Source: an uncultured Spirochaetota bacterium (GTDB lineage: Bacteria > Spirochaetota > Brevinematia > Brevinematales > JAOACQ01). Taken from it: a stretch of DNA of 64,000 nucleotides. Shown here piece by piece: positions 25,656 through 59,346 of the stretch (position 1 is its first letter; the number at the start of each line of letters is the position of its first letter). The DNA is taken from NCBI GenBank assembly GCA_963835575.1, contig CAWIGG010000006.1, positions 368,857-432,856 of the forward strand, in the 5' to 3' direction. The position numbers and the translations under genes are program-made. The notes under the pieces were generated by a model. The model made no database searches, had not been told where the DNA came from, and worked only from the letters and a program-made list of their open reading frames with translations.

Positions 25656-26111
25656 AGAAAATGAGGAGGAAATATGGAACATCAGAATCAGCTTGAGGCA
25701 AACCTGAGGAGGTTAAAACTTTCGGGGATGCTATTCAACCTTCCTATGCGTATCAGGGAAGCGCAGGAATCAAACCTGGACTATGGAGAATTCTTCTACC
25801 TGTTAGTTCAGGAGAGATAATAACATGCTCAAAAAGAGGCTGAGAGAAGCGAAGTTCGGCCAGGAAAACACTTTCGAGGGGTTTGATTTTAATTTCAATG
25901 AGAGTGCTATCCCTTCAAGACTAATCCGGGAAATCGCGTCCTGCCATGAGACAGTTTGTCGTCATCGCCGGGCCTCCCGGCATAGGTAATTATCGAAAGT
26001 TTTTGTTTATGGAAAGAAATAGACGAATATATAGATTTTAAGCCATATTTACTTTTATTTCTTTCCATAACACCTCACAATAGATTATATAGAATAATCT
26101 TGGAGGTGCTT

Positions 26112-27359
26112 ATGAAAACAAAGATTTCCATTGGAGAACTGGTCGCTAAGGTATTAGCAGAACTTGAAAGGCTGCATTATGCTTATATCACGATTTGTGG
26201 TTTTCGTGCCTTTTACAAGCAAGTTATTATTTTTGCAAACGAAAGGAAAGAACCATATTTTTCAGAAGGACTTGGAAGAGAATTTCTGAAAGGAAAGTAC
26301 AATTGTTCAATCAACTATTATACTGAAGCTATGCCTAAAAAATTCAAGAACATTATTCGAAAAATAAGGGTGTTAGGCGATTTCCAGCTTCATGGCGTAG
26401 TGATTCGAAGAATTGTAAAGAAACCAGGATATGTAAAACCACCACAGTTCGAAAAAGCACTTAGAGACTATGAAAAAGAGTGCGAAGATAACGAATATTC
26501 AAGAAGAGGTCTGAGAACACGCACACAACGTCTTTTCTTTTTTATCGATTATCTTGATTCTCTTGGAATTCAAAACCTAAATGATATTACAGCAGAAATC
26601 ATTTCTGATTATGTCAAAACGATTTATGCCCATCATGAAAAGAGCATGGCCTCAATCCTAACAACACTGAGGGTATTTTTACGATTTCTTTACCTGAACC
26701 GGTATACTCAGGAGGACTTATTATTGAAAGTCCCCAAACAAAAGAAGTACTATTACCCTTCTATACCTTCTGTATGGAAACAGGAAGATGTGGTTCGTAT
26801 GTTGGAAAATATCGATAGAGGGAATCCAACCGGCAAGAGAGATTATGCCATCCTTCTTCTGGCTTCGCGTCTTGGAATTCGAGTAGGTGATATCAAATCC
26901 TTAAAATTGAATGAATTAAATTGGAAATCAAAAACCATAGTGATTAAACAGAATAAAACAAAAAACATTGTAGCATACCCAATTCTGAAAGACATCGGCT
27001 GGGCATTAATTGATTATCTGCGGAATGCACGCCCTGTAAGTGATTCGCCATTTGTATTTTTACGCATGAACGCACCTTATGAAGCATTTAGTAAGAATGC
27101 CAATCTGTATAATATCATAACAAAGCATACAAGAAACGCAGGAATTGCTATACCCAGAGGGAAACGGCATGGTTTGCATTCTCTGCGACATACATTAGCA
27201 AGCACTTTGCTTGAACAAGGGACTCCTTTGCCTGTAATATCAGAAGTTCTAGGGCATATCAACTCTAAGTCCACAGGAGTCTACTTACAGGTAGGAATTG
27301 AAGGCTTAAAGCAATGTGCACTTGATCCTGAGGAGGTATTTAAAGATGTCTCAAGATAA
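26112..27359 (+). CDS. RIT tyrosine recombinase A
   Basis: 'RDYAILLL..LGIR', 'HSLRH', 'LGH', catalytic Tyr in 'TGVY'. Confidence 0.9.
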   Translation: MKTKISIGELVAKVLAELERLHYAYITICGFRAFYKQVIIFANERKEPYFSEGLGREFLKGKYNCSINYYTEAMPKKFKNIIRKIRVLGDFQLHGVVIRRIVKKPGYVKPPQFEKALRDYEKECEDNEYSRRGLRTRTQRLFFFIDYLDSLGIQNLNDITAEIISDYVKTIYAHHEKSMASILTTLRVFLRFLYLNRYTQEDLLLKVPKQKKYYYPSIPSVWKQEDVVRMLENIDRGNPTGKRDYAILLLASRLGIRVGDIKSLKLNELNWKSKTIVIKQNKTKNIVAYPILKDIGWALIDYLRNARPVSDSPFVFLRMNAPYEAFSKNANLYNIITKHTRNAGIAIPRGKRHGLHSLRHTLASTLLEQGTPLPVISEVLGHINSKSTGVYLQVGIEGLKQCALDPEEVFKDVSR

Positions 27360-28329
27360 AATTATGTTCTCCAGCAATCTCAGAGAGCTTTTAGATGGAT
27401 ATGTAAAAGAGCAGCGCGCAGTTGGTTACAAATACATCAAAGGGGCTGCCCTTCTTAAGCAGCTTGATAGCTATCTTGAAAGGAATCATCTGGCAGAAAA
27501 AAAGCTTTCGAAAGAAATGGTGCTTTCATGGACGGGGAAAAACCCTAATGAAACAGATAGAACAAGAATTGGGAGGATCTCAATTGCGAGAGGATTTGCA
27601 AAATATATGGTTCGTCTCGGCTATGAAGCATATATCTATCCGGCTGCGGCCGTTACAATGGAAAGATATTATTATGTTCCATATATTTTCTCAGAAAGAG
27701 AAATGCGCAGTATCTTTATTGTGAGTGATAATTATCCTGTTTCCGATATTTCGCCTAATCGTCATCTCGTCTTGCAGCTCATTATACGAATGTTATATGG
27801 ATGCGGACTTAGAATCTCTGAAGCTTTAAACTTAAAACTGGATGATGTGGATCTGGGAAAGGGAATCCTTTATATACGAGATGCTAAGTTTGGAAAGGAA
27901 AGAATGGTCCCAATGGCAGAAACATTAATGGAAAGATGCCGCCATTATTCATATGAAGTACATAAGTACGATAAAGCTGATACTTATTTTTTCCCTTCTC
28001 CATTTGGAGGGCATTACAATGAAGCTACCATATACTGGCTTTTCAGAAATTTGCTTTGGAAAGCCGGCATTTCCCATAGTGGAAAAGGTCCAAGACTTCA
28101 TGATTTGAGACATACTTTTTCAGTTCATTGTTTAAAGAAGTGGGTATTAAAGGGAGCAGATCTTGCTCAACTTCTGCCATATCTCTCAACTTATTTAGGT
28201 CATGTTGATTTAAGAGGTACACAACACTATCTAAGACTTACTGCTGATTTATATCCAACAATCATAGCATCTGTGGAAGAAAACTTTTCATTTTTAATAC
28301 CGGAGGTTGAATCCCATGAAACAAACTGA
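27346..28329 (+). CDS. RIT tyrosine recombinase B
   Basis: 'GCGLRISEAL', 'RLHDLRHTF', 'LSTYLGH...TQHYL'. Confidence 0.9.
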   Translation: MSQDKIMFSSNLRELLDGYVKEQRAVGYKYIKGAALLKQLDSYLERNHLAEKKLSKEMVLSWTGKNPNETDRTRIGRISIARGFAKYMVRLGYEAYIYPAAAVTMERYYYVPYIFSEREMRSIFIVSDNYPVSDISPNRHLVLQLIIRMLYGCGLRISEALNLKLDDVDLGKGILYIRDAKFGKERMVPMAETLMERCRHYSYEVHKYDKADTYFFPSPFGGHYNEATIYWLFRNLLWKAGISHSGKGPRLHDLRHTFSVHCLKKWVLKGADLAQLLPYLSTYLGHVDLRGTQHYLRLTADLYPTIIASVEENFSFLIPEVESHETN

Positions 28330-29338
28330 TTTAGCGAAGACACTGACCCAATATTTATCACAATATCTCCCTGGGCAGAGAAATGTCAGCACAAATACAA
28401 TTATGTCATATCGGGATACATTCAAACAGTTACTGATATTCTGTGATACTGAAATGAATATCAGTCCGGAATACCTGACTCTTAGCAAGATTAAAGCAGA
28501 GACAATACAAAACTTCCTGTTTTGGCTTGAAAAATCAAAGAGGATCTGCATTAATACACGCAACCAACGTTTGGCGGCTATTCATAGTTTTTATCGGTAT
28601 GTGCAGACAGAAAATCCTGAATTCATATTTGAATGTCAGAAGATTTTAGGTATCCCATTTAAAAAGCGCGAAATCAAAACAATTGATTATCTGCACCAGG
28701 ATAGCCTAAAGGTTCTATTCGAGCAGCCAGATACAAACACACAAAAAGGACGGCGTGATTTAACAATGATGGTTCTTCTTTATGACACCGGAGCTCGTGT
28801 TCAAGAATTAATCGAATTAAAAGTAGGAGATATCCGCCTTGCGAAACCAGCTACTATACTATTAACAGGTAAAGGCAGAAAAATGAGAGCTGTTCCCATT
28901 ATGGGTAAAAGCTGTGACTTATTAAAGAATTATCTGGAAGAGAATCATTTATTGGATAACGGGAAACAGAATTATCCTCTATTCTATAATAGTAACAGGC
29001 AACCTTTCACACGGCCCGGGATAACTTATATTTTGGAGAAGAATCTTAAAAAAGCAAAAGACCTAAACCCCAATATTCTGTTTCCTGATAAATTGAAACC
29101 TCATATGATGAGACATACGAAGGCTATTCATTTGTTAGAAGCTGGAGTTAATCTGATTTATATAAGAGATTTGCTGGGTCATGTAAATGTAAGTACAACA
29201 GAACTTTATGCCAGAACAAACTCAGAACTTAAGAGAAAAGCATTGGAATCTGCTTATATGGAAGTTGTTACGCAAGATGTTCCTGTTTGGGATGAAGATA
29301 TAGATTTATTGAATTGGTTGCGGGAGTTCTGTAGATAA
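28316..29338 (+). CDS. RIT tyrosine recombinase C
   Basis: 'TGARVQEL', 'PHMMRHTKA', 'IRDLLGH..STTELYA'. Confidence 0.9.
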   Translation: MKQTDLAKTLTQYLSQYLPGQRNVSTNTIMSYRDTFKQLLIFCDTEMNISPEYLTLSKIKAETIQNFLFWLEKSKRICINTRNQRLAAIHSFYRYVQTENPEFIFECQKILGIPFKKREIKTIDYLHQDSLKVLFEQPDTNTQKGRRDLTMMVLLYDTGARVQELIELKVGDIRLAKPATILLTGKGRKMRAVPIMGKSCDLLKNYLEENHLLDNGKQNYPLFYNSNRQPFTRPGITYILEKNLKKAKDLNPNILFPDKLKPHMMRHTKAIHLLEAGVNLIYIRDLLGHVNVSTTELYARTNSELKRKALESAYMEVVTQDVPVWDEDIDLLNWLREFCR

Positions 29339-37400: not shown

Positions 37401-37529
37401 CGGAAAATCGACATCCGGAAGCTGGCTGATCCCTATCCTCATGAGTGAAATCCCGCCCAATACGATGAGCCCGGTCATCAGCATCCAGGCGAATAATGGG
37501 CGTTTAATCGAAAGTTCAGATAAAGTCAT
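34404..37529 (-). CDS. AcrB/AcrD/AcrF-family RND permease
   Basis: 1041 aa; 'PDVDFPVV', 'GIVVDDAIIVLENI', 'RLRPILMTS'. Confidence 0.95.
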   Translation of the reverse strand: MTLSELSIKRPLFAWMLMTGLIVLGGISLMRIGISQLPDVDFPVVSVNIRFEGAAPEVIETEIVDTVEDAVMSIQGVRHVTSQSENSEGTVTIEFDLSRNIDIAVQDVQAKVAQIQQRLPKDAKPPTISKVNPEDQPILLLTLDSDRYPLRYLMEFVNDRLKNQFAMVAGVGDITLGGYVDPNLRIWLSAKSLNYYDLTVSDIVDAIQKGHSESPAGTINKDNKQLFVRTMGEATTVTQFENLSIDQRNGQPNYAMLSLKDVAKVDEGLADVTRLSRGNGVPGVGLSIRKQRGANSVNVAKDIRAKVDEIQKSLPEGMHLAINFDSTRYIEQSVKELNFILILSILLTAFVCWIFLGSWSSTLNVLLSMPTSVIGTFIVLYFSGFTLNTFTLMGLSLSVGIVVDDAIIVLENIVRHQERGKNRMTAAMEGSREISFAATAATISIVAIFLPVAFMSGVIGKYFFQFGVTITVAVSLSLVNALTLTPMFCSQFVDAGSRKTRIGSLIDWLLSGLTNIYKHTLSWVLEHRLIVITLAFTFFFLSFMTLRFINKEFLPAEDQSRFNIRLKTPIGSSLAYSDSRFSEVEKFLATRKEIDRYVLQVGGGSPGDANSGQVLVTMKDRGHRGIDKDAGHELSQQEFMALCRSRFNKIQDVRAVIQDLSMRNFVASRGFPVEFTVQGPDWDALAKYSSQIMAELDKTGLITDLDSDFQEGAPELHIIPNRKKAIAYAVSISSIDQTVNAMIGGIIVGTYLEGSHRYDINIKLEDTGQDPKEKIKSLYVWNSHGERIPLYKLVDIEEKNTKITVNRYNRERSVTIYANVKTGKFQQNALQAVEAISKRILPAGYYITMSGSSKTFDESYQSLIFALVLGIFIAYMVLAVQFNSFIDPITVLMALPFSASGALIALFVSGRSINIYSMIGLILLMGIVKKNSILLIDFTKRVRVGGAKSVKDALLEACPIRLRPILMTSLATIAGAIPPALSIGPSAESRIPMAIALIGGIIVSTLLTIFVVPCVYSVLCRFEKRRPESSQAKLKGSLKRG

Positions 37530-37817
37530 AATTTAAAATCCGCCGGAATAAATAATCTGGGACCACCAAAAAAATGTTATATTTGTATAGAATCATTTAT
37601 CCTCCACAATTATTATCTGTTACTCGCAATGAAATACTTAACAATCAGATAATTGCTTGTGCATGTGAAAAACCTAATTCATTATATTTTAATAGTATTA
37701 AGTTGGCAAATTTCTACCAAAACTAACCAAACCAGCCAAAAGATTTCATCAAATAACCAACAATTATGTTAAATGATTAGTTAAATAAAGATGTGAATAT
37801 TTTTAATTGATTGTAAT

Positions 37818-37950
37818 ATATAGACTTAGATATGCTCGGAGAGAGGGGGTTACGGATAATGCGTAATTCCTTATATACCATAGAATAACAAAACTTCCAA
37901 AAAATTTTACTGACACCTGGCTGACAAAATAAAAACATCTATTTTTTAAA
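37818..37950. repeat. att-like junction copy 2 (core at 37837-37849)
   Basis: Direct repeat of 34117-34250, offset 3701 bp. Confidence 0.75.
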
Positions 37951-38036
37951 AATCCAGATACTTTATTTAATAATTGGTAATAAATTTATAATCCTTTTCT
38001 TATTTTAATCTTAATCACACACTTGAGGCGTTACAA

Positions 38037-39553
38037 AGTTAAAATCCGGACTGAATGATCATATTACCCGAGAAAGTTATAAAATTATTAAATAAGCCAT
38101 TTTCAATATGACATCGAGTTTTTGTCAAATGTTGTGTATGACATACCCTCTCATTTTTTTATGCTGCCTTTTTTACAAGCTCTCCGTTCTCAAAAACAGC
38201 GCCTTCCAATACAAGGCTAATCTTTTCATAACCTCTTAATTTTCTCCATCGCCTGGATGCCTTATCCAGTAATTTATAGACCATTATTAGAATCGTTTCC
38301 CTGGTTCCGCAGCCTCTCATCTTTTTAGTTCTTAATCGAACTGTAGAGAAGGTAGATTCTATTACGTTTGTCGTACGGATATGTACCCAATGTTCCGCCG
38401 GACAGTTATAAAATTCGATCATAAGCTCCCAATCCTTTTCTAAACATTCGACAGCTGCTGGATATTTAGGATTAAAAACCGCCTGGAATAATTCAAAAGC
38501 TTTGATAGCATTATCCTTATCAGGAGCATTGCATATCTCATGAAGCATCTCTTTTGCCTTTGACTGTAATACTTTGGGCAGCTTGTTTAGAATGTTCTTT
38601 ATCTTATGAACCCAGCATCTCTGCCATCTGGATTCAGGATATACTTCTTTGGCTGCTTTCCAGAATCCAAGGCTTCCGTCTCCGATAAAAAGAATAGGAC
38701 CTTTCAAACCTTTTTCTTTTAGGTTTCTTAATATCCCTAACCAAGTCTCGGAATTCTCTCTGTAACCTTCTTCAACAAGAATAATCTCCTTTTCACCATT
38801 CTCATTGGCTCCGATCATTACAAGAGTGCATAAACGGTCTTCGCTGCCCTGTACATTGAAGTAAATGCCGTCAACCCATATATAGCAATACTTTTTATCG
38901 CTTAAATCGGATGTCCGCCACTCATCATATTCTTTACCCCATCCTTGTTTCATTCTGCTTATACTTGAGGCTGATAATCCTTTCGCTTCTTCACCAAGCA
39001 ATCCTCTCAAGGCATTCTCCATATCCATCTCTGAGACTCCATAGAGATACAACAATGGAATGGCTTCCTCAATTCTCAGGCTTTTTCTCATATACGGCGG
39101 TACTATTAGGCTTTGAAAATTGTCGCCTCCGAGTCGGTTCCTTGTTCTCGGAATACATACATCAATAGCCCCTCCACCAATGAGAATCTGACGGGCTTTA
39201 TGATACCCATTTCTTACTATTGCCTTTCTCCCGTCTTCGATAGTTAAATGCTCTCTCTCCTGAAGAAACCCATTAATTTCATCTTCCAGAGCCTTCTTGA
39301 TTATTTCCCTGGCCCCGATCCTTGCCAATTCTTCAAGACATAAAAATTCTACTGTTTCATCTTGATTAAAAGCCTGTAAGAGCTTAAAATCTTCGTTGTG
39401 CTTCGGCATATGGCGTATTCCTCCTTTTGTTTATTGTCGTAAATAAATTATAGAGGGTACGCCATCTTTTTTATAATATTTATTCCTATACACAACTTTC
39501 TATTATAACTCTATGACATCGCTGATTCATTCGGCAGCTTTTGCGACAGACTC
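38037..39553 (+). mobile_element. Right-end remnant of an IS1182 relative of 48394-52671, itself split by IS256
   Basis: 38037-38115 plus 39521-39553 match ~52560-52671, including TIR GCTTTTGCGACAGACTC followed by the same CCGT target. Confidence 0.85.
38116..39511 (-). mobile_element. IS256-family insertion sequence (transposase 38159-39409)
   Basis: 'YIWVDGIY', 'GDGSLG', 'QRCWVHK', 'IRTTNVIES'; GAGTT...AACTC ends; 9-bp TSD TATGACATC. Confidence 0.93.
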
Positions 39554-39648
39554 CCGTGTTAAACGCTGGCCCGGTCGAAATCGGAACAAATAGCAAAGCC
39601 ACGGATGGCGATGTATGTCAGTAGTTCAACTAATTTAAATAGGAGTTA

Positions 39649-40407
39649 TTATTTTGACATTAATAATCTTTTTCTTTCTTCAATTATACTTTTATATTCT
39701 TTCTCATTTGTTCCGCAAACGAAATTATCTACAAATTCCCAATATGCACTTAGCATTTCGTTTTCATTCCCATACTTATTCTTTTTACTTATTTTATATT
39801 TACTTATATTATCAAAATCAGCAATTTTTATATCGATTGAAGTTTTTACTTCAGGTATTAATCCAAAGAAAAAAGCATCGGCACACATACATAAGTTTTT
39901 GGATGTTGCAATTTCCATTTCATTTTGGATTGTAACAAATAAATCATTAAAATTAGTAATCTCATTTATTTTATTATTCATTAGTAACTTTTCTGTTTCA
40001 GGAACATCTTCTAATCCATCAGATATTGTTTTGTTATTCAGTGCTGCGGTTATCATTTCACTTATATTGTTTTTCCTTCTTGCACTATTTGGAGAAACAT
40101 ATATTCTTTTGTTTTGATTTAAATCTTCTGCTATAATTATATCATCGAAATCGATTTTTCCAGGATCATAATACTTCAATGTTTGCAAACCAGCATTTTT
40201 TACGTCTATAAATATTTCTAAATTCTTTTTCTGAAAATATTCATCATTATTTCTATTCTTTTTATATATCATAGTATTAACTATTGTATTTTCGATTAAT
40301 TTTTCATTTACAAGGTTAATCTTATAAACATCCCATTGAGATCCGGAACCAAGATATTTTTCTGATTCAACATTTAACCTATTATCTTTGTGATAATATG
40401 TTTTCAC
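39649..40407 (-). CDS. Cassette 10 gene, possible protein-kinase-like fold
   Basis: GTG start after AAGGGG; 'YLGSGSQWDVYK' Gly loop and 'IKIADFD' DFG-like motif. Confidence 0.55.
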   Translation of the reverse strand: MKTYYHKDNRLNVESEKYLGSGSQWDVYKINLVNEKLIENTIVNTMIYKKNRNNDEYFQKKNLEIFIDVKNAGLQTLKYYDPGKIDFDDIIIAEDLNQNKRIYVSPNSARRKNNISEMITAALNNKTISDGLEDVPETEKLLMNNKINEITNFNDLFVTIQNEMEIATSKNLCMCADAFFFGLIPEVKTSIDIKIADFDNISKYKISKKNKYGNENEMLSAYWEFVDNFVCGTNEKEYKSIIEERKRLLMSK

Positions 40408-40426
40408 TTATTCCCCTTATTCCCGG

Positions 40427-42451
<2,025 letters not shown>

Positions 42452-42473
42452 CAAGGATGCCGCATATAATTCT

Positions 42474-42692
42474 CTATTTCAACTTTTTATGAAATCTATT
42501 ATTATCAATGTCTTTTTTTATTAAATCTAGAAAAAACGATTCTTCATCTTTATTTGCACCATATTTATAAATATTTCCTTTTTTATCTTTATAAAAATAT
42601 TTTATATAACCTTCACCAATCTCAATATTAATTTCATACTCTTCACCATCCTTATCTGTATAACGAAAGACTTTCATTTCATTCATAATCAT
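42474..42692 (-). CDS. Cassette 10 small hypothetical protein
   Basis: 72-aa ORF overlapping the upstream gene, AT-rich. Confidence 0.55.
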   Translation of the reverse strand: MIMNEMKVFRYTDKDGEEYEINIEIGEGYIKYFYKDKKGNIYKYGANKDEESFFLDLIKKDIDNNRFHKKLK

Positions 42693-42972
42693 CCTCTTTC
42701 ATAGTAACTGAATATAAATCAATATAAGTAACTAAAGATTCAACTAATTCGTCATTTGACATATCATCAACTGATTTCAAGAATTTTTCTTTTGCTTTAT
42801 CAAAGCATTTAATAAATAAGCTATCATTTGGTAGTTCTTTTGAATGTTTAAGTTTTTCAAAATATTCTTTTGCTAATTTTGTTCGCTCTTTTAAAGGTCG
42901 ATCACCTAATAGTAAAATTAAACCTTCTGTAAGTTTTTGAATAGGATAATGATCAGACATAAAACCTCCCAA
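42679..42972 (-). CDS. Cassette 10 small hypothetical protein (likely start ATG 42960)
   Basis: GGAGG SD before 'MSDHYP'. Confidence 0.6.
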   Translation of the reverse strand: MGGFMSDHYPIQKLTEGLILLLGDRPLKERTKLAKEYFEKLKHSKELPNDSLFIKCFDKAKEKFLKSVDDMSNDELVESLVTYIDLYSVTMKEDDYE

Positions 42973-43031
42973 AATATTTTTGTTTTTTCGCCAAGGATGG
43001 CGAATAATTTATAAAAAACTCCGCAACTTTC

Positions 43032-44968
43032 AGCTAACGGTGCGGCTAGGCGACGTTTTGCGGCCCGCAGGGTTGGCGCAGTTTTTGCATTTTCAAAGTT
43101 TCCCCTGGAATTTACAAACACCGTTTTTTCAAAACTTTCCTAAATTTATTATATTGCAAAAAACGTGACAAAGCAAAATGTGGCGAAGCCCGAGGAGCGC
43201 AGGTTCGCAAACCGAGCACCGCAGCGCCCAGCCGCTGTTGAGTCTGTCGAAAAAGTGATATTTAATGTAAATTATTATCGATATAGCTTAAAATAATGAA
43301 TGAAATAAATCAATAGCGGAAGGTTATATGGCAAGATACAAGACAGTTAATTATGAGCAGATGGAAATGATACCGCTCAATTTTTCAGATCAGCTGATCG
43401 AAGGAACATATGAACACACACTCAATTTCCTAATCGAGGAAAAGGCTGACCTTTCCTGTTTTGATATAAATTATAAAAATGATAAAACAGGCTCGAAAGC
43501 GATTTCTCCGGCAATTCTTCTGAAAATAATCCTTTTTGCCTATTCGAAAGGTATTACTACATCACGCAGGATTGAGGAAGCTTGCCGGGTGAATGTCATC
43601 TTCAAAGCCCTGTCCGGGAATACCGTTCCAGACCATTCCACTATAGCCGCTTTTGTTACCGGTATGAAAGACCGGATTAAAATAGTATTTCAGTTTGTGC
43701 TGATGGTCTGTTCTTCTGCGGGATTGATCGGCGGGGACATGTTCGCCGTTGACGGCTGTAAATTGCCTTCAAACGCTTCTAAAGAATGGAGCGGTACATT
43801 CAAAGACCTGAAAAAGAAACAGGAAAAGTTTGAAAAGCTGGCGGCATTTCTACTGGAAAAACACGCGCAAGCTGACTGCTCCGGCGAAAATGAAAAGTCT
43901 AAAGCGCTTCAAAAAAGATCGGAAAAAATACGGAAGAAAGCGGAGAAAATCGATGCCTTTCTCAAATCCCAGAATCCCAAATACGGCAAGCGGGGACGTG
44001 AAAACCAATCGAATATTACCGATAACGAAAGCGCGAAAATCAAGAGTTCCCACGGTGTGATACAAGGTTATAATGGACTTGCGGTAGTGGATTCAAAGCA
44101 TCAGGTGATTACCGCGGCGGAAGCTTTTGGTTTAGGCCAGGAAGGGGAAGTATTGAAGCCGATGGTTGAAATAACGGAGGAAAATTTAAGCGTGATAAAA
44201 GGAGAAACAAATCCGCTGGAAGGAAAAACAATACTGGGGGACACGAATTATTTCAGCGAAGAAAATCTAAAATATCTGGCGGAAGAAAAGAAGATGGAAG
44301 CTGTGATACCGGACAATCAATTTCGAGGGAGGGATGAACGGTTTACCGATCGGGGAAGGTTCAAGCCGAAACCGATGAAATACCGGGAACACGATTTTGA
44401 AAAAAATGAAGCTGATAATACTTATATATGCCCGAATGGAAAAATATTAAGCTATAAGGGATACCAGAGGCAATTGAGTAATTTCGGCCATAAATATCAG
44501 GCCAGGCAGGCGGATTGTTCAAAATGCGGGAAAAGGGGACAATGCTTAAAACATCCCGATAAGACAAGGCAAAGAACATTATATCTGGTGGACAAAAGAG
44601 GGGATAAAAACTATTCAAAAGAAATGGTAAATAAAATTGATCTGCCGGAAATCAGGGATTTGTACAGCCGGAGGATGGGAATAATTGAGCCGGTATTCGG
44701 TAACATCCGTTCTTGTAAAGGTATGGACCGTTTTACGCTCAGGGGTAAGAGTAAGGTTAATATCCAGTGGCTTTTGTTCTGTATAGTGCATAATATTGGT
44801 AAAATCCAGATATTTGGTAAGATTTAAGGGGGTGTTCATAGCCATAATACCGGCTTGAAATTGGAAAAATGGAAAATCCGGATAGAGAAATGAAAAATGA
44901 TACTCTATCCGGCTTTCAGAAGACAGTTTTTATTCTCGTTTTTGGCTTTTTCGACAGGGTCGTTGTAC
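43032..44968 (-). other. attC-like site 9 (about 212 bp once the IS is removed)
   Basis: AGCTAAC-GGT-GCGGCTAGGCG ... CGCCCAGCCGC-T-GTT[IS]GTAC. Confidence 0.8.
43240..44961 (+). mobile_element. IS1182-family insertion sequence (transposase 43328-44827)
   Basis: TIR GAGTCTGTCGAAAAAG / GACCCTGTCGAAAAAG; 3-bp TSD GTT; 'PDHSTIA', 'VDG', 'IEPVFGNI'. Confidence 0.92.
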
Positions 44969-48176: not shown

Positions 48177-49627
48177 TTAATACCTCCTTTCATTTCTCGC
48201 AATGGCAGATAACGGTCGGCACAGGCGAAGTTTGCGAGCCTTAGAACTGCTCCGCAGTTCTTGGCGAGCAAATTTGGTGAGCCCCGCGTTTTTCTCCTGC
48301 GGCCTGCTGACGGCGGGGCGAACCCGAGGAGCGCACCCTGATTTTGCTACCCCGTTTTGCTTTTGAAGGGGAGCACCGCAGCGCATGTGCCGTGAGTCTG
48401 TCGCAAAAGCTCTTCATGTACATTTTTCATAACTTACGATAGAATATAATAAAACCATATTTAAGAGGTGTCAAATGCTGGGGAAATTCAAAAAATATAT
48501 TCGCGATCAAATCTACTGGCTGACCGTCGATCCCGACAAAATCAGGGAAAACAATCCGCTGGTCAAAGTCATTGACGATTATGTTGAGAGCTATATTTCC
48601 CCCGCTGAATTTGCCGTTAAACTGCGGAATCAAACAACGGGAGCAAAAGCGGTCAACCCTACAATGATGCTGAAAGTCCTTTTTTACAGCTTCGCGTCCG
48701 GTATTTACACTTCACGTAAAATAGAAAAAAGGATGAAAAACGACCTGAACACGATTTATCTCGCGGGAAATACCACCGTTGACCACAGTAATATCTGTAG
48801 ATTTATCAATAAATACCTGGATGAAATCGTTAGTATTTTCGGGAAAATGGTATACATTCTGGCGAAATCGGGTTTTATCAGTTATGAACTGGAAGCTATA
48901 GACGGTACAAAGATAAAGGCATCGGCCAACAGGAATTTCACGGGGAATGCGAAGGAATTCCGGGATAAAAAGGATAAAATCGAGGAAAAGATCTTAAAAA
49001 TCCTCCAGGAAACGGTGAACAGCAATACCGATGATAAATATTCCAAAAGGATGGCAAATAAACTCAAGAAGTTTGAACAGCAGAAATCCGGGATAGATAA
49101 ATTTCTGAAAACAGTTGAGGACAGGAATTTAGACGAAACGGAAAGCGTAAACCTGACAGACAAAGACGCCAGGTTAATGAAAATGAATAACGGATCAATC
49201 GGCCCCGGGTATAATTGCCAGGCCGCCGTTGACAGTAAAAATGAATTTCTCACGGGCGCGATGGTATCAGACTGCGCAAGCGACCGTAACCTTGCTGTCC
49301 CGATGATAGAGGAAGTAATGGATCACCAGGAAGAGCCGAAGGAAGACACAAAGTTCACGCTGGACGCCGGATATTTCACATCGGATAATATCCAATACGG
49401 TGAAGATAAAAAGATCGACCTTTATATCCCCGAAGGAAAAGAAGATGGAAAATCCGGACGAAACATGCCGGGGTTCCGGGTGAAACATGCCACCCAATCC
49501 GTGTGAAACATGCCGGGTAATCCGGATGAAATGTTACCACCTACCATAAGAAAAAGCGAATCAAACACGAAGAATTCCTCCGAGAATGTTAAGCTAATCC
49601 TTCTTGAAAAAATAAGAAGGAGTTGGT

Positions 49628-51184
49628 ATGCCGAACAGGAGGAAGCCTATGAAGAAAATCCGGGAAGTGATCCGGATGATCAAAGAAAACGGCCTGAGCT
49701 GCCGTGTGACATCAAAGGCCCTGGATATTTCCAGGCCAACCGTGCAAAGATATATATCCAGGTTTGAAAAAAGCGGCCTAACCATCGCGGAAATTTATGA
49801 AATGAGCGATTCTGCTTTAATTGAAATTTTCGAATCGATGGCAGAAGGTGACAGTCAGGAAGAAACCGAAAAGGATAATCTGTACAATGAATTCCCCGAA
49901 TACAGTAAGGAACTACTGCGTACAGGCGTCAATCTGAGATTGCTTTGGGAAGAATACCTGAGAAAATATCCAGGAGGCTATCGCTATTCTCAATTCTGCT
50001 ATCACTACGGCATCTGGAAAGGTTCTCTTGAAATATCCATGCACCAGGAATACAAGGCCGGAGACAAGCTTTTTGTTGATTTTACCGGCGCGAAATTTCC
50101 GATTGTAGACCGTTCCACAGGAGAAGTTATAGAGAAAGAGGTATTCGTAGCCATTCTTGGAGCAAGCCAGTATACATATGTGGAAGCGACGGATAGCCAG
50201 AAGAAAGAAGACTTAATCAGGGCTATCGAGAACGCGTTGTATTACTTCGGAGGATCACCAAGAGCCATAATACCCGATTGTTTAAAAAGCGCTGTAACGT
50301 TGGGCAATAAATATGAACCTGCAATTAATTCTGAATTTCAGAATTTTTGCAGACATTATTCTATGTGTCCCCTCCCTGCAAGACCATATAAACCGCGAGA
50401 TAAAGCACACGTTGAAAACGCCGTAAAAATCACCTACAGCTGGATATTTGCCGTTCTCAGGAATAGAGTTTTTTATACTCTGGGAGAATTGAATATTGCT
50501 ATACGGGAACAATTGGGAATCTATAATTCAAAGAAGATGCAGAAGCTCAAAGTCAGCAGGCGGGAATTTTTCGAGGAAACAGAACGGAAAGAGTTAAAAC
50601 CGCTTCCGAAGGAAAGATACAGTTTTAAAAGCTTCTCAAAAGCTAAGATCCAATTCAACTATCATGTCTGTCTCAAAGAAGATTCTCATTACTACAGCGT
50701 TCCATATCGATATAGAGGCAAAATGGCAGATATTGTTACTTCCGATCGGACAGTGGAAATATTTGTTGATAATATCCGCATTGCAGCCTATCCACGGGAC
50801 CGTAGAAAGCAAGTTTATACAACCACACATGAACATATGCCGCCCCATCACAGGTGGGTCGGAGACTGGAATCCGGAGAAGTTAACACATTGGGGTAAGT
50901 CGCTTGGTCCGGATGTTGAAGAAATGATAAAGAGAGTCCTGCAAAGCAGGGATTATCCAGAACAGGCATATAAGGTCTGTCTGGGCATCTTAAGCCTGGC
51001 CAAAAAACTCGGAAAAGAAAGGCTCGATAAAGCCTGTAAACGGGCGCTTGATTTTCAGTATTATTCATATCAGGGAATAAAGCGGATTCTGGAGAAAGGC
51101 CTGGATAATTTTGAGGAAGAATCGGTACTGTTTCCGGCCGTTAAGATGCATGAAAATATCCGCGGAAGAGAATATTTTGAATAG
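49628..51184 (+). CDS. istA: IS21 transposase
   Basis: 'GDKLFVDF', 'PDCLKSAV', 'PRDKAHVE'. Confidence 0.93.
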   Translation: MPNRRKPMKKIREVIRMIKENGLSCRVTSKALDISRPTVQRYISRFEKSGLTIAEIYEMSDSALIEIFESMAEGDSQEETEKDNLYNEFPEYSKELLRTGVNLRLLWEEYLRKYPGGYRYSQFCYHYGIWKGSLEISMHQEYKAGDKLFVDFTGAKFPIVDRSTGEVIEKEVFVAILGASQYTYVEATDSQKKEDLIRAIENALYYFGGSPRAIIPDCLKSAVTLGNKYEPAINSEFQNFCRHYSMCPLPARPYKPRDKAHVENAVKITYSWIFAVLRNRVFYTLGELNIAIREQLGIYNSKKMQKLKVSRREFFEETERKELKPLPKERYSFKSFSKAKIQFNYHVCLKEDSHYYSVPYRYRGKMADIVTSDRTVEIFVDNIRIAAYPRDRRKQVYTTTHEHMPPHHRWVGDWNPEKLTHWGKSLGPDVEEMIKRVLQSRDYPEQAYKVCLGILSLAKKLGKERLDKACKRALDFQYYSYQGIKRILEKGLDNFEEESVLFPAVKMHENIRGREYFE

Positions 51185-51196
51185 GAGGAACTGAAT

Positions 51197-51940
51197 ATGA
51201 CCAATGAAGCAACTATTGAAAAAATGCAGAAGATGAAACTGCATGGGATGTCCAGGGCGTTTGAGGATATCATTGCCGGTAAAACGCCTGACGGCCTGAC
51301 TGCCGATGAAACAATTGCGCATCTTGTGGATTCGGAATGGGACGAAAGGTATAATCGGAAACTGTCATCTTTAATCAAAAGAGGGCGTTTCAGATATCAG
51401 GCTGGTCTGGAGAATCTTTCTTACCGTGCGGATAGAGAACTGGATAAAAATCTGATATTGAGGCTTTCGAATTGTGATTGGATACGAAAGAAAGAAAATA
51501 TGATTATTACAGGCGCTACCGGCAGCGGGAAAAGCTATCTTGCATCAGCTTTCGGTAATCAGGCTTGCCGGCAGGGCTACAGGACCCTTTATTTCAACTG
51601 TTTGAAGATTTTTACCCGGTTAAAATTCGCAAAAGCGGAAGGTAGTTACTCAAAAGAAATGAATTTTATCCAGAAGCAGGATTTATTGATACTGGATGAT
51701 TTTGGTCTTGAAATTCTTGATACACCCTCAAGATTGTCTCTTCTGGAAATGCTTGAGGACCGGCATGGTAAAAACTCTACTTTGATAACTTCTCAGCTGC
51801 CGGTAAAAGATTGGTTTGAAAAAATCGGTGATCCTACGATAGCTGACGCAATCTGTGACAGGATAAATCATTCTGCTATTAAAATCGAATTGAAGGGGGT
51901 TGATTCTATGCGTAAAATTTATGCTAAAGATTCTGGATGA
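51197..51940 (+). CDS. istB: IS21 helper ATPase
   Basis: 'GATGSGKS', 'LLILDDFG', 'ADAICDR'. Confidence 0.93.
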   Translation: MTNEATIEKMQKMKLHGMSRAFEDIIAGKTPDGLTADETIAHLVDSEWDERYNRKLSSLIKRGRFRYQAGLENLSYRADRELDKNLILRLSNCDWIRKKENMIITGATGSGKSYLASAFGNQACRQGYRTLYFNCLKIFTRLKFAKAEGSYSKEMNFIQKQDLLILDDFGLEILDTPSRLSLLEMLEDRHGKNSTLITSQLPVKDWFEKIGDPTIADAICDRINHSAIKIELKGVDSMRKIYAKDSG

Positions 51941-52745
51941 AACATGCCACCTGCCTTAAAATGTTTTGGGAATTTTAGTGTTTTGAAAAGTGGTAACATT
52001 TCGCCCGGAACCCCGGCACATTTCACCGGAATACGCAAAGAAGAAGACGGAAGTCCGAAAAAGAGAAAGAACAAGGATAAAATAACATCCAAAGACTGTG
52101 AATTAATAATTGACGGTAATATCAGGAAAATCAAATGCCCCGGAGGCCAGATTATGTGCGCGGAAAGAGCTTATAATGATCGGGGAGTCAAGAATTACCG
52201 TTTCTATCCAAAGCGCGAGTTGTGCAGGAAATGCAAGCTGCTTTCAAATTGCGCCGGTAAGCTGGAAGCATTAAAAAACAAACGGTTTAATGTAAAATAT
52301 GAATATTTTGAAACGGTTGAATTAAGGCGCAAGATGAAGGAAAAGCTTAGGAGTATTGAAGGTAAAAGAACTTATAATGAACGTGCCTGCCTGATCGAGC
52401 ACATTTTCGGGACGATAAAAGAATACTTCAACTTCGGAAGGTTTTACTACCGCGGTCTGGATAGTGTAAACACTATCTGGCATATGGTCTGCATTGCGTA
52501 CAATTTCAGGAAAATGGCGGCTTTGGGGATTAAATTGTAGGATTAGGGGCAGGAGATACAGTTAAAATCCGGACTGAATGATCATATTACCCGGGATGGT
52601 TTGTAAAATTATTAAATAAGCCATTTCAATATGACATCGCTGATTCATTTTATTGCTTTTGCGACAGACTCCCGTGTTGTGCGATGGCCGGGCCAATAAT
52701 TATATAATTATGATAAGCCACGGATGGCGTTTTGTGATAATATAT

Positions 52746-55551: not shown

Positions 55552-55591
55552 ATTTTATGTCCTCCTTAATAATATATCCGCACGCTATTTC

Positions 55592-55761
55592 GCCCAACGT
55601 TTTGCGGCTAAACGAAGCCGCTGAGCCGTACAGCTCCGCTGTAGGCGAAGCGGTTTGGTGAGCCCTGCGTCCTTCTTCACCGTCCTACCCACGGCAGGGC
55701 GAGCCCGAGGAACGGAGCCGTCGCAACGGCGAGTACCGCAGCGTTTTAGCCGCTGTTAAGC
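55592..55761 (-). other. attC-like site 3 (170 bp)
   Basis: GCCCAAC ... GCGGCTAAACG ... CGTTTTAGCCGC-T-GTTAAGC. Confidence 0.85.
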
Positions 55762-56765
55762 GATGGCCGGCATTCTGTTACAAACCAATTTAATCCGCAC
55801 GATATTTTAACAAAAAAGGAATTCTATAACAAGATTCTTTAAGATTATTAGAAAGCTTATAATAAAGTCGGAATTAACAAAAGCGGTATTACACTTATAA
55901 TAACAAATAATCAATATCGGTATAATAAACTTTTGTAGATTTAAAACCTTAATTGAATATTTCATCAGGATTAATCAAAAAGAGTGTCGGTAGAACCCCG
56001 GGAATCAAAGAAATATTCTCCTATAATCCGCTTTTGACTTATACTATAAAACTTCGCTTTTATTCAAACAACCCAACATTACAAAATTTTTAAAAACAAA
56101 AGGCCGTGCGGATTCGGTTGTATCCAGGGAGTATTTTAAAACAAGCTTTAATCGCATTAAAATCTGCCGGCTTTCGCTTAACGTTTCGCGGCTAAACGAA
56201 GCCGCTGAGCCGTACAGCTCCGCTGTAGGCGAAGCGGTTTGGTGAGCCCTGCGTCCTTCTTCACCGTCCTACCCACGGCAGGGCGAACCCGAGGAACGGA
56301 GCCGTCGCAACGGCGAGTACCGCAGCGTTTTAGCCGCTGTTAAGCGATGGCCGGCATTCTGTTACAAACCATTTTAATCCGCACGATATTTTAACAAAAA
56401 AGGAAATCTATAACAAGATTCTTTAAGATTATCAGAAAGCTTATAATAAAGTCGGAATTAACAGGAGCGGTATTACACTTATAATAACAAATAATCAATA
56501 TCGGTATAATAAACTTTTGTAGATTTAAAACCTTAATTGAATATTTCATCAGGATTAATCAAAAAGAGTGTCGGTAGAACCCCGGAAATCAAAGAAATAT
56601 TCTCCTATAACCCGCTTTTGACTTATACTTTAAAACTTCGCTTTTATTCAAACAACCCAACATTACAAAATTTTTAAAAACAAAAGGCCGTGCGGATTCG
56701 GTTGTATCCAAGGAGTATTTTAGCATAAGCTTTAATCGCTTTTAAATCTGCCGGCTTTCGCTTAA
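55598..56765. repeat. Tandem near-identical ORF-less cassettes 2 and 3 (584 bp each)
   Basis: 55598-56181 and 56182-56765 differ only by scattered substitutions. Confidence 0.9.
56176..56345 (-). other. attC-like site 2 (170 bp)
   Basis: Near-identical to attC 3. Confidence 0.85.
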
Positions 56766-56934
56766 CGGTGCGGCGTTTGCGAAGTCGCTGAGGCTTAGAA
56801 AATGTTCACAATTTCAAGCCGAAGCGATTTGTCGAACATTTTGTCCTTCTTCTCCGTCCTACCCGACAAAAGGTGAGACCGAGGAGCGCGCGCAGTTTAC
56901 GAGCACGCACCGCAGCGCAAACGCCGTGTTGTAC
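56760..56934 (-). other. attC-like site 1 (175 bp)
   Basis: GCTTAAC-GGTG-CGGCGTTTGCG ... CGCAAACGCCG-T-GTTGTAC. Confidence 0.85.
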
Positions 56935-58290: not shown

Positions 58291-59346
58291 TCATATCGTT
58301 CCCATTCTATCTAACGGGCTGATGATCTTTCTCAAGTCTTTCTCCGCGACATGGGTATAAATCTCAGTGGTTTTACTGGATTCATGTCCAAGAATTTCTT
58401 GTATATATCGAATATCCGTTCCATTTTCAAGAAGATGCGTTGCAAAAGAATGCCTCAAAGAGTGAACGCTCGCATTTTTCTTAATACCGGTTTTAATAAT
58501 TCCCTGTTGAAAAATTGCTTGAACTGTCCGGCCGCTGATTTTTAATCCTTTTCCCTGACCCTCAAAAAGCCAATTCTGAGGCTGATAGTTCTGGATATAC
58601 ATTTTCAATAATGGCATGATATTATCGGACAGTAAGGTATAACGGTCTTTCTTGTTTTTAGAAGCCCGGATGTGGATCAGTTTCCGCTCTTTATCAATAT
58701 CAGCTATCTGCATATTAACCGCTTCGGATAACCGGAGTCCTGCGGAATAAATCAGGGTTATGATCAGCCTGTGTTTAATATTTTTGTAACTGTCAATAAG
58801 GGCCTTTACTTCCTCTTTGCTCAGTATCGCCGGCAGCTTTTTATCTTTCTTTGCCCGCTTTACCCGGTAAACAAAATCTTTCCCTAATATTACTCCGTAA
58901 TAAAACCTCAGGGCATTGACGGCGCAGTTGAGCGTGGAAGCTGCGGCTTTCTTTTCATCGGCCAGGTAATCCAAGTAATTTTTAATGTCCTGCGAATTGA
59001 CCTCTTCCGGCGCCTTATTCAAATATTCCAGCATGGAAATATTATACCTGGAATACGATTCTTTTGTTTTCCTGCTGTACCCGCGGATGCGGGTTTCCCG
59101 CCCGATCGCGGCCTGAACGGGATTTTCATCCGCGTTCTTTATGGAAACGTCGAAATACTGCTCAATTAAAAGCCGCGCCTGCGGAGTATCGGGGATCAGC
59201 CAGGTTTTTTTACCGGCGTCCCATTTCCGGCCGGGGATAATGCGTACTTTCTGCAGAAGACTCTGGGCACGGGGTATGGACAATTCAATCAGGCAGTCGC
59301 CGTTGAGAGCCGCGGAAACTTTTTTTATTTCAAATCTGTCAGCCAT
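58291..59346 (-). CDS. Tyrosine recombinase (integron-like integrase without the IntI insertion, extra N-terminal domain)
   Basis: 'YSAGLRLSE', 'KNKKDR', 'HSLRHSFATHLLENGTDIRYIQEILGH.SSKTTEIYTHV...SPLD'. Confidence 0.92.
   Translation of the reverse strand: MADRFEIKKVSAALNGDCLIELSIPRAQSLLQKVRIIPGRKWDAGKKTWLIPDTPQARLLIEQYFDVSIKNADENPVQAAIGRETRIRGYSRKTKESYSRYNISMLEYLNKAPEEVNSQDIKNYLDYLADEKKAAASTLNCAVNALRFYYGVILGKDFVYRVKRAKKDKKLPAILSKEEVKALIDSYKNIKHRLIITLIYSAGLRLSEAVNMQIADIDKERKLIHIRASKNKKDRYTLLSDNIMPLLKMYIQNYQPQNWLFEGQGKGLKISGRTVQAIFQQGIIKTGIKKNASVHSLRHSFATHLLENGTDIRYIQEILGHESSKTTEIYTHVAEKDLRKIISPLDRMGTI

Follow-up and report, generated by a model that had tools for sequence, protein, structure and literature searches.

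We analysed a window of 64,000 nucleotides (nt) from the genome of an uncultured Spirochaetota bacterium (G000:C6:368857-432856, G000 being this genome), which carries an array of ten gene cassettes lying on the same strand as a tyrosine recombinase gene and separated by long attC-like sites. One of them, cassette 10, is a chimera: it has the ends and the content of a fused cassette, in which the genes of two cassettes follow one another without an intervening attC, together with a group II intron. As comparison with related cassettes suggests, the seam between its two parts lies very probably within the core of a short hairpin, at the position of the intron. For the origin of this arrangement we tentatively favour, at somewhat less than even chances, a direct hairpin-to-hairpin deletion and one homing event of the intron. 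The weights given below to the competing causes are our judgement from small counts.

Cassette 10 combines the start of one cassette with the end of another

The cassettes follow a common plan, with GTT and an arm at the start and the complementary arm and AAC at the end. In cassettes 1-9 of the window, start and end agree at 8/8 core bases; cassette 10 is the sole one of the ten in which they differ, and it does so in the core as well as in the distal arm. This bears out a first-pass annotation of the sequence, which had singled out this cassette for its ends, its three genes and its intron. Throughout G000, an end could be assigned to 43 of the 51 cassette starts. Since only three of these 43 resolvable copies are mismatched genome-wide, the mismatch of cassette 10 is rare and meaningful. 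Starts without a resolvable end were left out of the counts (8/51 in G000 and 8/27 in the related genome G006), end assignments were checked by eye where the script had overlooked an end, and one borderline cassette of G000 (C2 3628) was counted as matching. The partner ends predicted from the start and the end of cassette 10 were not found in G000, with one or two mismatches allowed, and an attC-end profile search gave no match between 43038 and 39558. The right-end type of cassette 10 occurs in four of 401 genomes, all in the same family.

The three genes differ in what can be said of their origin. Genes 1 and 2, which precede the intron, are orphans: searches with gene 1 retrieved only the gene itself and, among 400 other genomes, four weak matches (E value 0.001-0.006) inside longer frames, an Atlas search with it gave no usable match, and gene 2 found only itself. 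Because they are orphans, their parentage is uncheckable, which leaves some room for a break located farther upstream. Gene 3, which follows the intron, has three relatives at 42-50% identity and two additional metagenome loci, and was not found among 60 relatives save for one weak partial match. In one locus (L023) the relative of gene 3 forms a single-gene cassette with matching ends, and in another (L024) it lies inside an apparent two-gene cassette. In the gene 3 product, an N-terminal loop is rich in glycine and an ADFD motif is conserved, and its nearest named Atlas clusters are kinase-like (score 0.93), which is a lead only. The search for parental cassettes proposed in the first-pass annotation came back empty: none was found in G000 (tblastn and end patterns), in 12 family genomes (by DNA), among the 60 relatives (with gene 3) or in the 400 genomes (with gene 1). 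Viral contigs gave 0 matches to two junction patterns.

The seam lies very probably within a hairpin core

Cassette 10 bears the same hairpin motif three times, namely in its leader, in the middle, where it is split by the intron, and in its trailer (Table 1). In G000 and in the genomes G004, G005, G006 and G007, the motif recurs either about 40-45 nt past the start of a cassette or about 50 nt ahead of the end. When the exons are rejoined, the middle hairpin forms five Watson-Crick pairs followed by a G.G, so that, exactly as the first-pass annotation had read it, the core pairs and the next position does not. Further pairing of 4 A/T base pairs (bp) past the G.G is at chance level, given that 471 of 2000 flank shuffles fold as well. 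A search for intron-free hairpins of this core type gave 36 distinct matches; the sixth base pair is formed in all 12 that occupy a leader or trailer position, and it is lacking in 13 of the remaining 24, situated outside such positions.

The two arms of the middle hairpin were then compared with those of other cassettes. The 3' exon, earlier said to match the leader of cassette 7, is indeed more like it (score 9) than like any other of 14 cassette hairpins in the genome (the next two, both leaders, score 5 and 4), but the sequences are similar rather than identical and the likeness is partly that of a ribosome-binding site. Left-flank similarity does not assign the 5' exon to the leader or the trailer type (best scores 3). 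A cassette of G007 shows the left arm of the junction in perfect hairpins, both in its leader and in its trailer, and its first 11 start bases are those of cassette 10. Furthermore, a cassette of G004 has the same right end as cassette 10, the complementary start and a different gene; its leader hairpin is perfect over 8 bp, and the right arm of this hairpin matches the 3' exon. This G004 cassette presents the predicted frame of the parent of the right part (parent B, the parent of the left part being A), and the seam is therefore very probably located in the hairpin core.

The distribution of the motif is wider than this array. A 12-nt palindromic form is found in cassettes of several genera: at 53246-53229, 52728-52717, 43004-42987 and 39609-39598 of the window, in the C2 arrays of G000, and at loci L110, L114, L115, L117 and L150. 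This hairpin motif may be a trace of cassette construction.

The intron is class F-like and intergenic

The boundaries of the intron are set by four near-identical copies in the genome, and the copy of cassette 10 shows 0-2 differences from the other three. It matches the Rfam families RF00029 (49.8 bits) and RF02005 (71.4 bits) and encodes a 455-residue reverse transcriptase (RT)/maturase in which RVT_1 and GIIM were the only domains matched, with no endonuclease domain. It is predicted to be competent for splicing. Two exon-binding sites, EBS1 and EBS2, are complementary to the intron-binding sites IBS1 and IBS2 of the 5' exon (Table 1). Across related introns, the EBS1 and EBS2 positions vary with the target, as judged by eye in 37 aligned rows, comprising the window and the 36 of 83 loci for which a 5' end was found.

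The splice site lies 22 nt past the stop codon of gene 2 and 19 nt before the start of gene 3; the distance of about 10 nt from the stop, given earlier for the 5' exon, holds for the beginning of the hairpin. Since the intron is intergenic, splicing restores a spacer and no reading frame, so the earlier statement that it would render the cassette seamless at the RNA level is true only in a trivial sense. A promoter-like site composed of the intron 5' end and the 5' exon (42443-42470, plus strand) points antisense into genes 2 and 1, with 11/12 consensus matches and a 16-nt spacer; a promoter scan of the region found 16 sites vs 13.0 +/- 3.5 in shuffles, thus no excess.

A parallel with group IIC-attC introns, drawn in the first-pass annotation, fails on all four features tested, and membership in this group was rejected. 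According to the accessible text of PMC7923331, from which the defining features were taken, these introns have a CGC triad, whereas the present one has AGC; they have a short EBS1 (3-4 bp) and lack EBS2, whereas here a 6-bp EBS1 is combined with a covarying 4-nt EBS2; they insert in the bottom strand of attC at TTGT/T, whereas this copy occupies an internal hairpin, at a distance of 586 nt from one cassette end and 852 nt from the other; and they are oriented opposite to the genes, whereas here intron and genes are all on the minus strand.

On the other hand, the intron resembles class F (IIF; g1-g4), described as having an IIB-like RNA, an endonuclease-less RT/maturase, a 5-nt domain V loop, a long domain VI and an EBS2 (PMC3753933, PMC3552965, in the parts available). 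It shares these listed traits, the domain V loop and the long domain VI being read from a predicted fold, and has a 5' end of its own, GUACG. The 5-nt loop is also present in class E, and an RT/maturase without endonuclease in classes A, C, D and E as in class F. The intron thus appears class F-like by RNA features described for classes E and F and by the long domain VI of class F.

Target choice by the intron

Each of the other three copies of the intron lies within a perfect 8-bp hairpin of a dispersed repeat of about 250 nt. This repeat occurs in about 30 places in G000 (e.g. C6:286000-286234), with inverted ends and a central hairpin, and several of its copies are interrupted by another multicopy element. 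G000 contains 16 sites that combine IBS2, IBS1 and a C at +1. Four of the seven with TG at -13/-12 are occupied, vs none of the nine others (Fisher p 0.019, the sites not being independent), and the 5' exon of the cassette 10 junction is of the TG, occupied kind. By symmetry, the leader of parent B is predicted to be of the empty-site kind, and the three exact leader-type target sites of G000 are all intron-free.

Hairpin targeting as a trait of the whole lineage was rejected, the 5' exons of relatives being different and mostly short word repeats. Indeed, in related introns from many phyla (L025-L104) the 5' exons consist of repeated 7-nt words, and EBS1 and EBS2 follow the word; the related introns of G006 are 69% identical, with different 5' exons. 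The lineage seems to specialise on dispersed repeats and not to be a cassette specialist.

Two of the repeat-borne copies, L015 (G000:C2:94364-96496) and L018 (G000:C5:88364-90496), have in common a 3' single-nucleotide polymorphism (SNP) and a 3' flank of 108 nt that is identical and extends as far as the host repeat does. In the 5' halves of the repeat they agree at 71/100 positions, and the median right-half identity within the repeat family is 78/100. According to PMC2504315 (in the part available), retrohoming in bacteria does not convert the flanks, so this pattern points to recombination or gene conversion through the copies, or to assembly polishing.

Possible origins of the chimera

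In the reading that we favour, the left part of a cassette A (start, leader hairpin, genes 1 and 2) would have been joined to the right part of a cassette B, contributing gene 3, the trailer hairpin and the right end, with loss of the DNA between them, attC of A included. The crossover would fall within the 14-bp core of the palindromic hairpin common to leaders and trailers of the family, and the cores would recombine directly, by slippage or microhomology at the stem-loop. One copy of the intron would use EBS1/EBS2 pairing to home to the hybrid hairpin. This step is most simply placed later than the fusion, since the 5' exon that the intron prefers comes from the left half. The intron would mark the seam without being its maker and, once spliced from any transcript, would leave an intergenic hairpin and no new protein. 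The mismatched ends, the hybrid hairpin arms, the central intron and its pairing with the target are observed, and a crossover in the core is what we infer from them.

Intron-free look-alikes were found in G006. Of the 43 genomes of the class, one, G006, contains the 16 bases that span the rejoined seam; there they are intron-free, lie between two genes and show the same G.G mismatch. The same genome has a cassette free of introns and insertion sequences (IS) that shares its right end with cassette 10; its start is mismatched and its leader hairpin imperfect. Two of the 19 resolvable cassettes of G006 are mismatched, with one gene each and no open reading frame (ORF) of a mobile element. Mismatched single-gene cassettes of G006 with no IS or intron ORF are located at L113:2878-4077 and L124:3770-4731. 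The first-pass annotation had named an intron-free allele with the same three genes and the same mismatched ends as evidence against its own reading; what G006 offers is a cassette of this right-end type that is mismatched and lacks an intron.

Several points weigh against a direct hairpin deletion. The intron coincides exactly with the seam, and 2 kilobases (kb) of identity are a far better recombination substrate than 14 bp. The ends of the 16-base look-alike of G006 are scrambled by IS481 remnants, so its chimera status is not demonstrable. No intron-free hairpin hybrid was seen in G000, and each of the three mismatched copies among 43 has a multicopy element at the break. Finally, the occupancy test is weak, as six of the seven TG sites belong to one repeat family and p = 0.2 when the comparison is restricted to the three exact leader-type sites.

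The same sequence would result if two intron copies, one in a hairpin of cassette A and the other in the leader hairpin of cassette B, had undergone RecA-type recombination that deleted the DNA between them. As a variant, the second copy could be a fresh retrohoming intermediate recombining at once with the donor. We regard this origin, proposed in the first-pass annotation, as a serious possibility, second to the favoured one but about as likely. The intron is precisely at the hybrid hairpin, the four copies show 0-2 differences, and the predicted leader of B still pairs with EBS1 and the 4-nt EBS2. In addition, the two other mismatched cassettes of G000 break at IS copies, and the common SNP and 108-nt flank of the C2 and C5 copies suggest exchange through intron copies, although this common flank is possibly an artefact of consensus polishing. 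However, two insertions are required, one of them at a site type that is empty in 3/3 cases in G000; the assembly contains no parent, no second cassette-borne copy and no reciprocal product, and the look-alikes of G006 are intron-free. Of the earlier proposal, the chimera and the most likely position of its seam in the core are supported; recombination of two intron copies is a possible cause.

Of the other two mismatched cassettes of G000, one has an IS21-type copy at the break, and this is the only one of eight IS21-type copies without a target duplication. The other breaks at an IS481-type copy, of whose two flanks only the right one fits the end arm; target duplications of IS481 are not consistently readable. 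All five IS481-type copies lie about 20 nt past a cassette GTT, in the start arm (46890-45560; C2:2040417, 1248064 and 3609; C6:168837), and one of the five joins the start and the end of different cassettes.

It is also conceivable, but improbable, that the middle hairpin is native to a multi-gene cassette B and simply received the intron by homing, the true break being situated elsewhere, in the stretch from the start arm to gene 2. In G006 the same imperfect hairpin separates two genes, which would fit this arrangement, as would a 9-nt A/T-rich word found upstream of the hairpin both in G006 and in the 5' exon, though words of this type are common in A/T-rich leaders (by eye, uncounted). 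Genes 1 and 2, without relatives, are unassignable to a parent, and the relative of gene 3 at L024 is in an apparent two-gene cassette; by contrast, the one at L023 is a single-gene cassette with matching ends. Moreover, cassettes of G004 and G006 with the same right end carry this right arm about 45 nt past the start, and cassette 10 already has a perfect leader hairpin of its own.

Lastly, the flanks of two different intron copies could have been joined by the assembler, the intron being a near-identical 2-kb repeat present in four copies. None of nine runs retrieved contains half of the sequence words searched for, and RNA data were not among them; the four of these runs that were compared (contigs only) bridge neither junction, and this carries no weight either way. 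The other three copies have flanks of the repeat family on both sides and therefore leave no swapped partner; the missing partner ends were not found in the genome, 0/14 contig ends hold intron sequence, and the other copies are crossed by contigs as long as 2 Mb. An assembly artefact is thus very improbable.

Insertion sequences and present mobility of cassette 10

The array is broken up by elements of the IS1182, IS21, IS481 and IS256 families. At the right end of cassette 10, an IS1182-type end, itself interrupted by an IS256-family element, cuts the attC, and the rest of this attC was not seen at 37480-38160. Because its attC is cut in this way, the fused unit, which has lost most of its own attC, is probably neither excisable nor a mobile new cassette now. 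The first-pass annotation had overlooked this cut, as well as the hairpin motif in the leader and trailer of cassette 10 and the three other intron copies. IS1182-type elements are located at or just past the inverse core of three attC sites (39553, 43240-44960 and 48395-52672).

Two further observations concern the surroundings. Seven copies of a 428-nt cassette that lacks a long ORF are spread over three arrays, often in tandem (window 55588-56766; C2:2031347-2034100; C7:1977-3145). Three tyrosine recombinase genes lie side by side at 26100-29338 of the window, a layout that we take to be that of a recombinase-in-trio element.

Table 1. Features of cassette 10 and its surroundings, in window coordinates
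Feature	Position	Strand	Remarks
Cassette 10	43038-39558	minus	three genes and group II intron
Cassette 10 start (GTT core and arm)	43021..43038	minus	assigned to parent A
Leader hairpin	42987..43004	minus	parent A; perfect 7-bp stem, TCCT loop
Gene 1	42679..42972	minus	97 amino acids (93 from ATG); orphan; 14-nt overlap with gene 2
Gene 2	42474..42692	minus	72 amino acids; orphan
5' exon end	42452..42462	minus	left arm and loop of hybrid hairpin; IBS2 at -11 to -8, IBS1 at -6 to -1
Group II intron	40427..42451	minus	2,025 nt; 5' GUACG, 3' AC; same strand as cassette genes
EBS2	42282..42285	minus	4 nt; complementary to IBS2
EBS1	42253..42258	minus	6 nt, terminal loop; 6/6 complementary to IBS1
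RT/maturase, intron-encoded	40613..41980	minus	455 amino acids; intact; YADD at residue 284; RVT_1 and GIIM
Domain V	40545..40578	minus	AGC triad; 5-nt loop in predicted fold
Domain VI	3' of domain V	minus	long; A at 40433, 7 nt from 3' end
3' exon start	40408..40426	minus	right arm of leader-type hairpin and purine-rich ribosome-binding site; assigned to parent B
Gene 3	39649..40407	minus	252 amino acids; cassette-borne family; weak kinase-like lead
Trailer hairpin	39598..39609	minus	parent B; 4-bp stem, TCCG loop
Cassette 10 right end (arm and inverse core ending AAC)	39558..39574	minus	same end type in G004, G006, G009
IS1182-type end	39533..39553	minus	cuts attC 4 nt past inverse core of cassette 10
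IS256-family element	transposase 38159-39409		interrupts IS1182-type end
attC-like site upstream of cassette 10	43039..43239	minus	directly after IS1182-family element (43240 onward)
IS1182-family transposase	43328-44827		matches DUF772 and DDE_Tnp_1_6
Tyrosine recombinase	58291-59346	minus	head of array; matches Phage_integrase and Phage_int_SAM_4

Comparison with known systems

Formation of cassettes by introns has been proposed for IIC-attC introns in the model of Leon and Roy (2009), as cited in PMC7923331 and PMC3001079. Cassette 10 is reminiscent of this model in that an endonuclease-less group II intron lies in a cassette array and that recombination between two copies has been proposed to join DNA. 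In the model, the terminator of a non-cassette gene is joined to an isolated attC. No such junction is seen here, because the left half opens with a cassette start and the gene family and frame of the right half are cassette-borne elsewhere. Unlike in the model, both halves look cassette-derived, and the process would reshuffle cassettes instead of capturing a new gene.

A second group for comparison is formed by the group IIB introns UHB.I2 and H.ha.F1/F2, which Sonbol and Siam (2021) described in integrons and in clusters of attC sites lacking integron-integrases (CALINs) (PMC7923331). These belong to CL1 and class E and lie after an attC or an attC-like structure. Like the intron of cassette 10, they are non-IIC, endonuclease-less and situated in a cassette array, UHB.I2 being in cassette orientation. 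Unlike them, the present intron is intact, multicopy and class F-like, and it splits a hairpin at a seam; no cassette fusion is reported with those introns in the accessible text of the same source.

Fused cassettes as such are documented, for instance blaOXA-10/aadA1 and blaGES-1/aacA4, with stem-loop slippage as one proposed cause (PMC8876359, in the part available). As in cassette 10, the genes of two cassettes are kept in one unit and the intervening attC is lost. In the known fusions, the deletion falls within or at the attC stem-loop. The seam of cassette 10, occupied by an intron, is situated instead in a separate leader/trailer hairpin, and an IS has cut the second attC. The locus also resembles the product of ectopic recombination between mobile-element copies, as in an IS-mediated deletion, in which a multicopy element stands at the join of unrelated flanks, a situation found twice more in the G000 arrays. 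Unlike an IS, the intron leaves no target duplication, and hairpin asymmetry and end mismatch are therefore the sole markers.

A literature search, whose coverage excludes most subscription papers and supplements, did not bring up any published case of a fused cassette with a non-IIC intron in its seam. Fused cassettes that arose through loss of an attC, as well as non-IIC introns in cassette arrays, are documented kinds; new in cassette 10 are the target (a leader/trailer hairpin and not an attC), the intron class and the position of the intron at a cassette seam.

Significance

How integron cassettes arise and are remodelled is listed as an open question (PMC8618304, in the part available). 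Cassette 10 represents one event, with no parent found and with a fused unit that appears immobilised. If the intron is a mere passenger, the locus would amount to a fused cassette in an IS-ridden array and a hairpin-homing intron, both of known kinds. Nevertheless, it provides a concrete test case of intron-mediated assembly, with a different intron class and a different target. The internal hairpin, common to cassettes of several genera of one family, is a likely point of exchange. In a broader scenario, which we consider doubtful, this leader/trailer hairpin would act as a second, integrase-independent exchange point: homing of a class F-like intron would turn 14 bp into 2 kb of shared sequence, so that heads, genes and tails could be swapped at a fixed intergenic position and the intron later spliced or lost. 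Cassette 10 would then be a caught intermediate, and the intron-free hybrids of G006 the end products.

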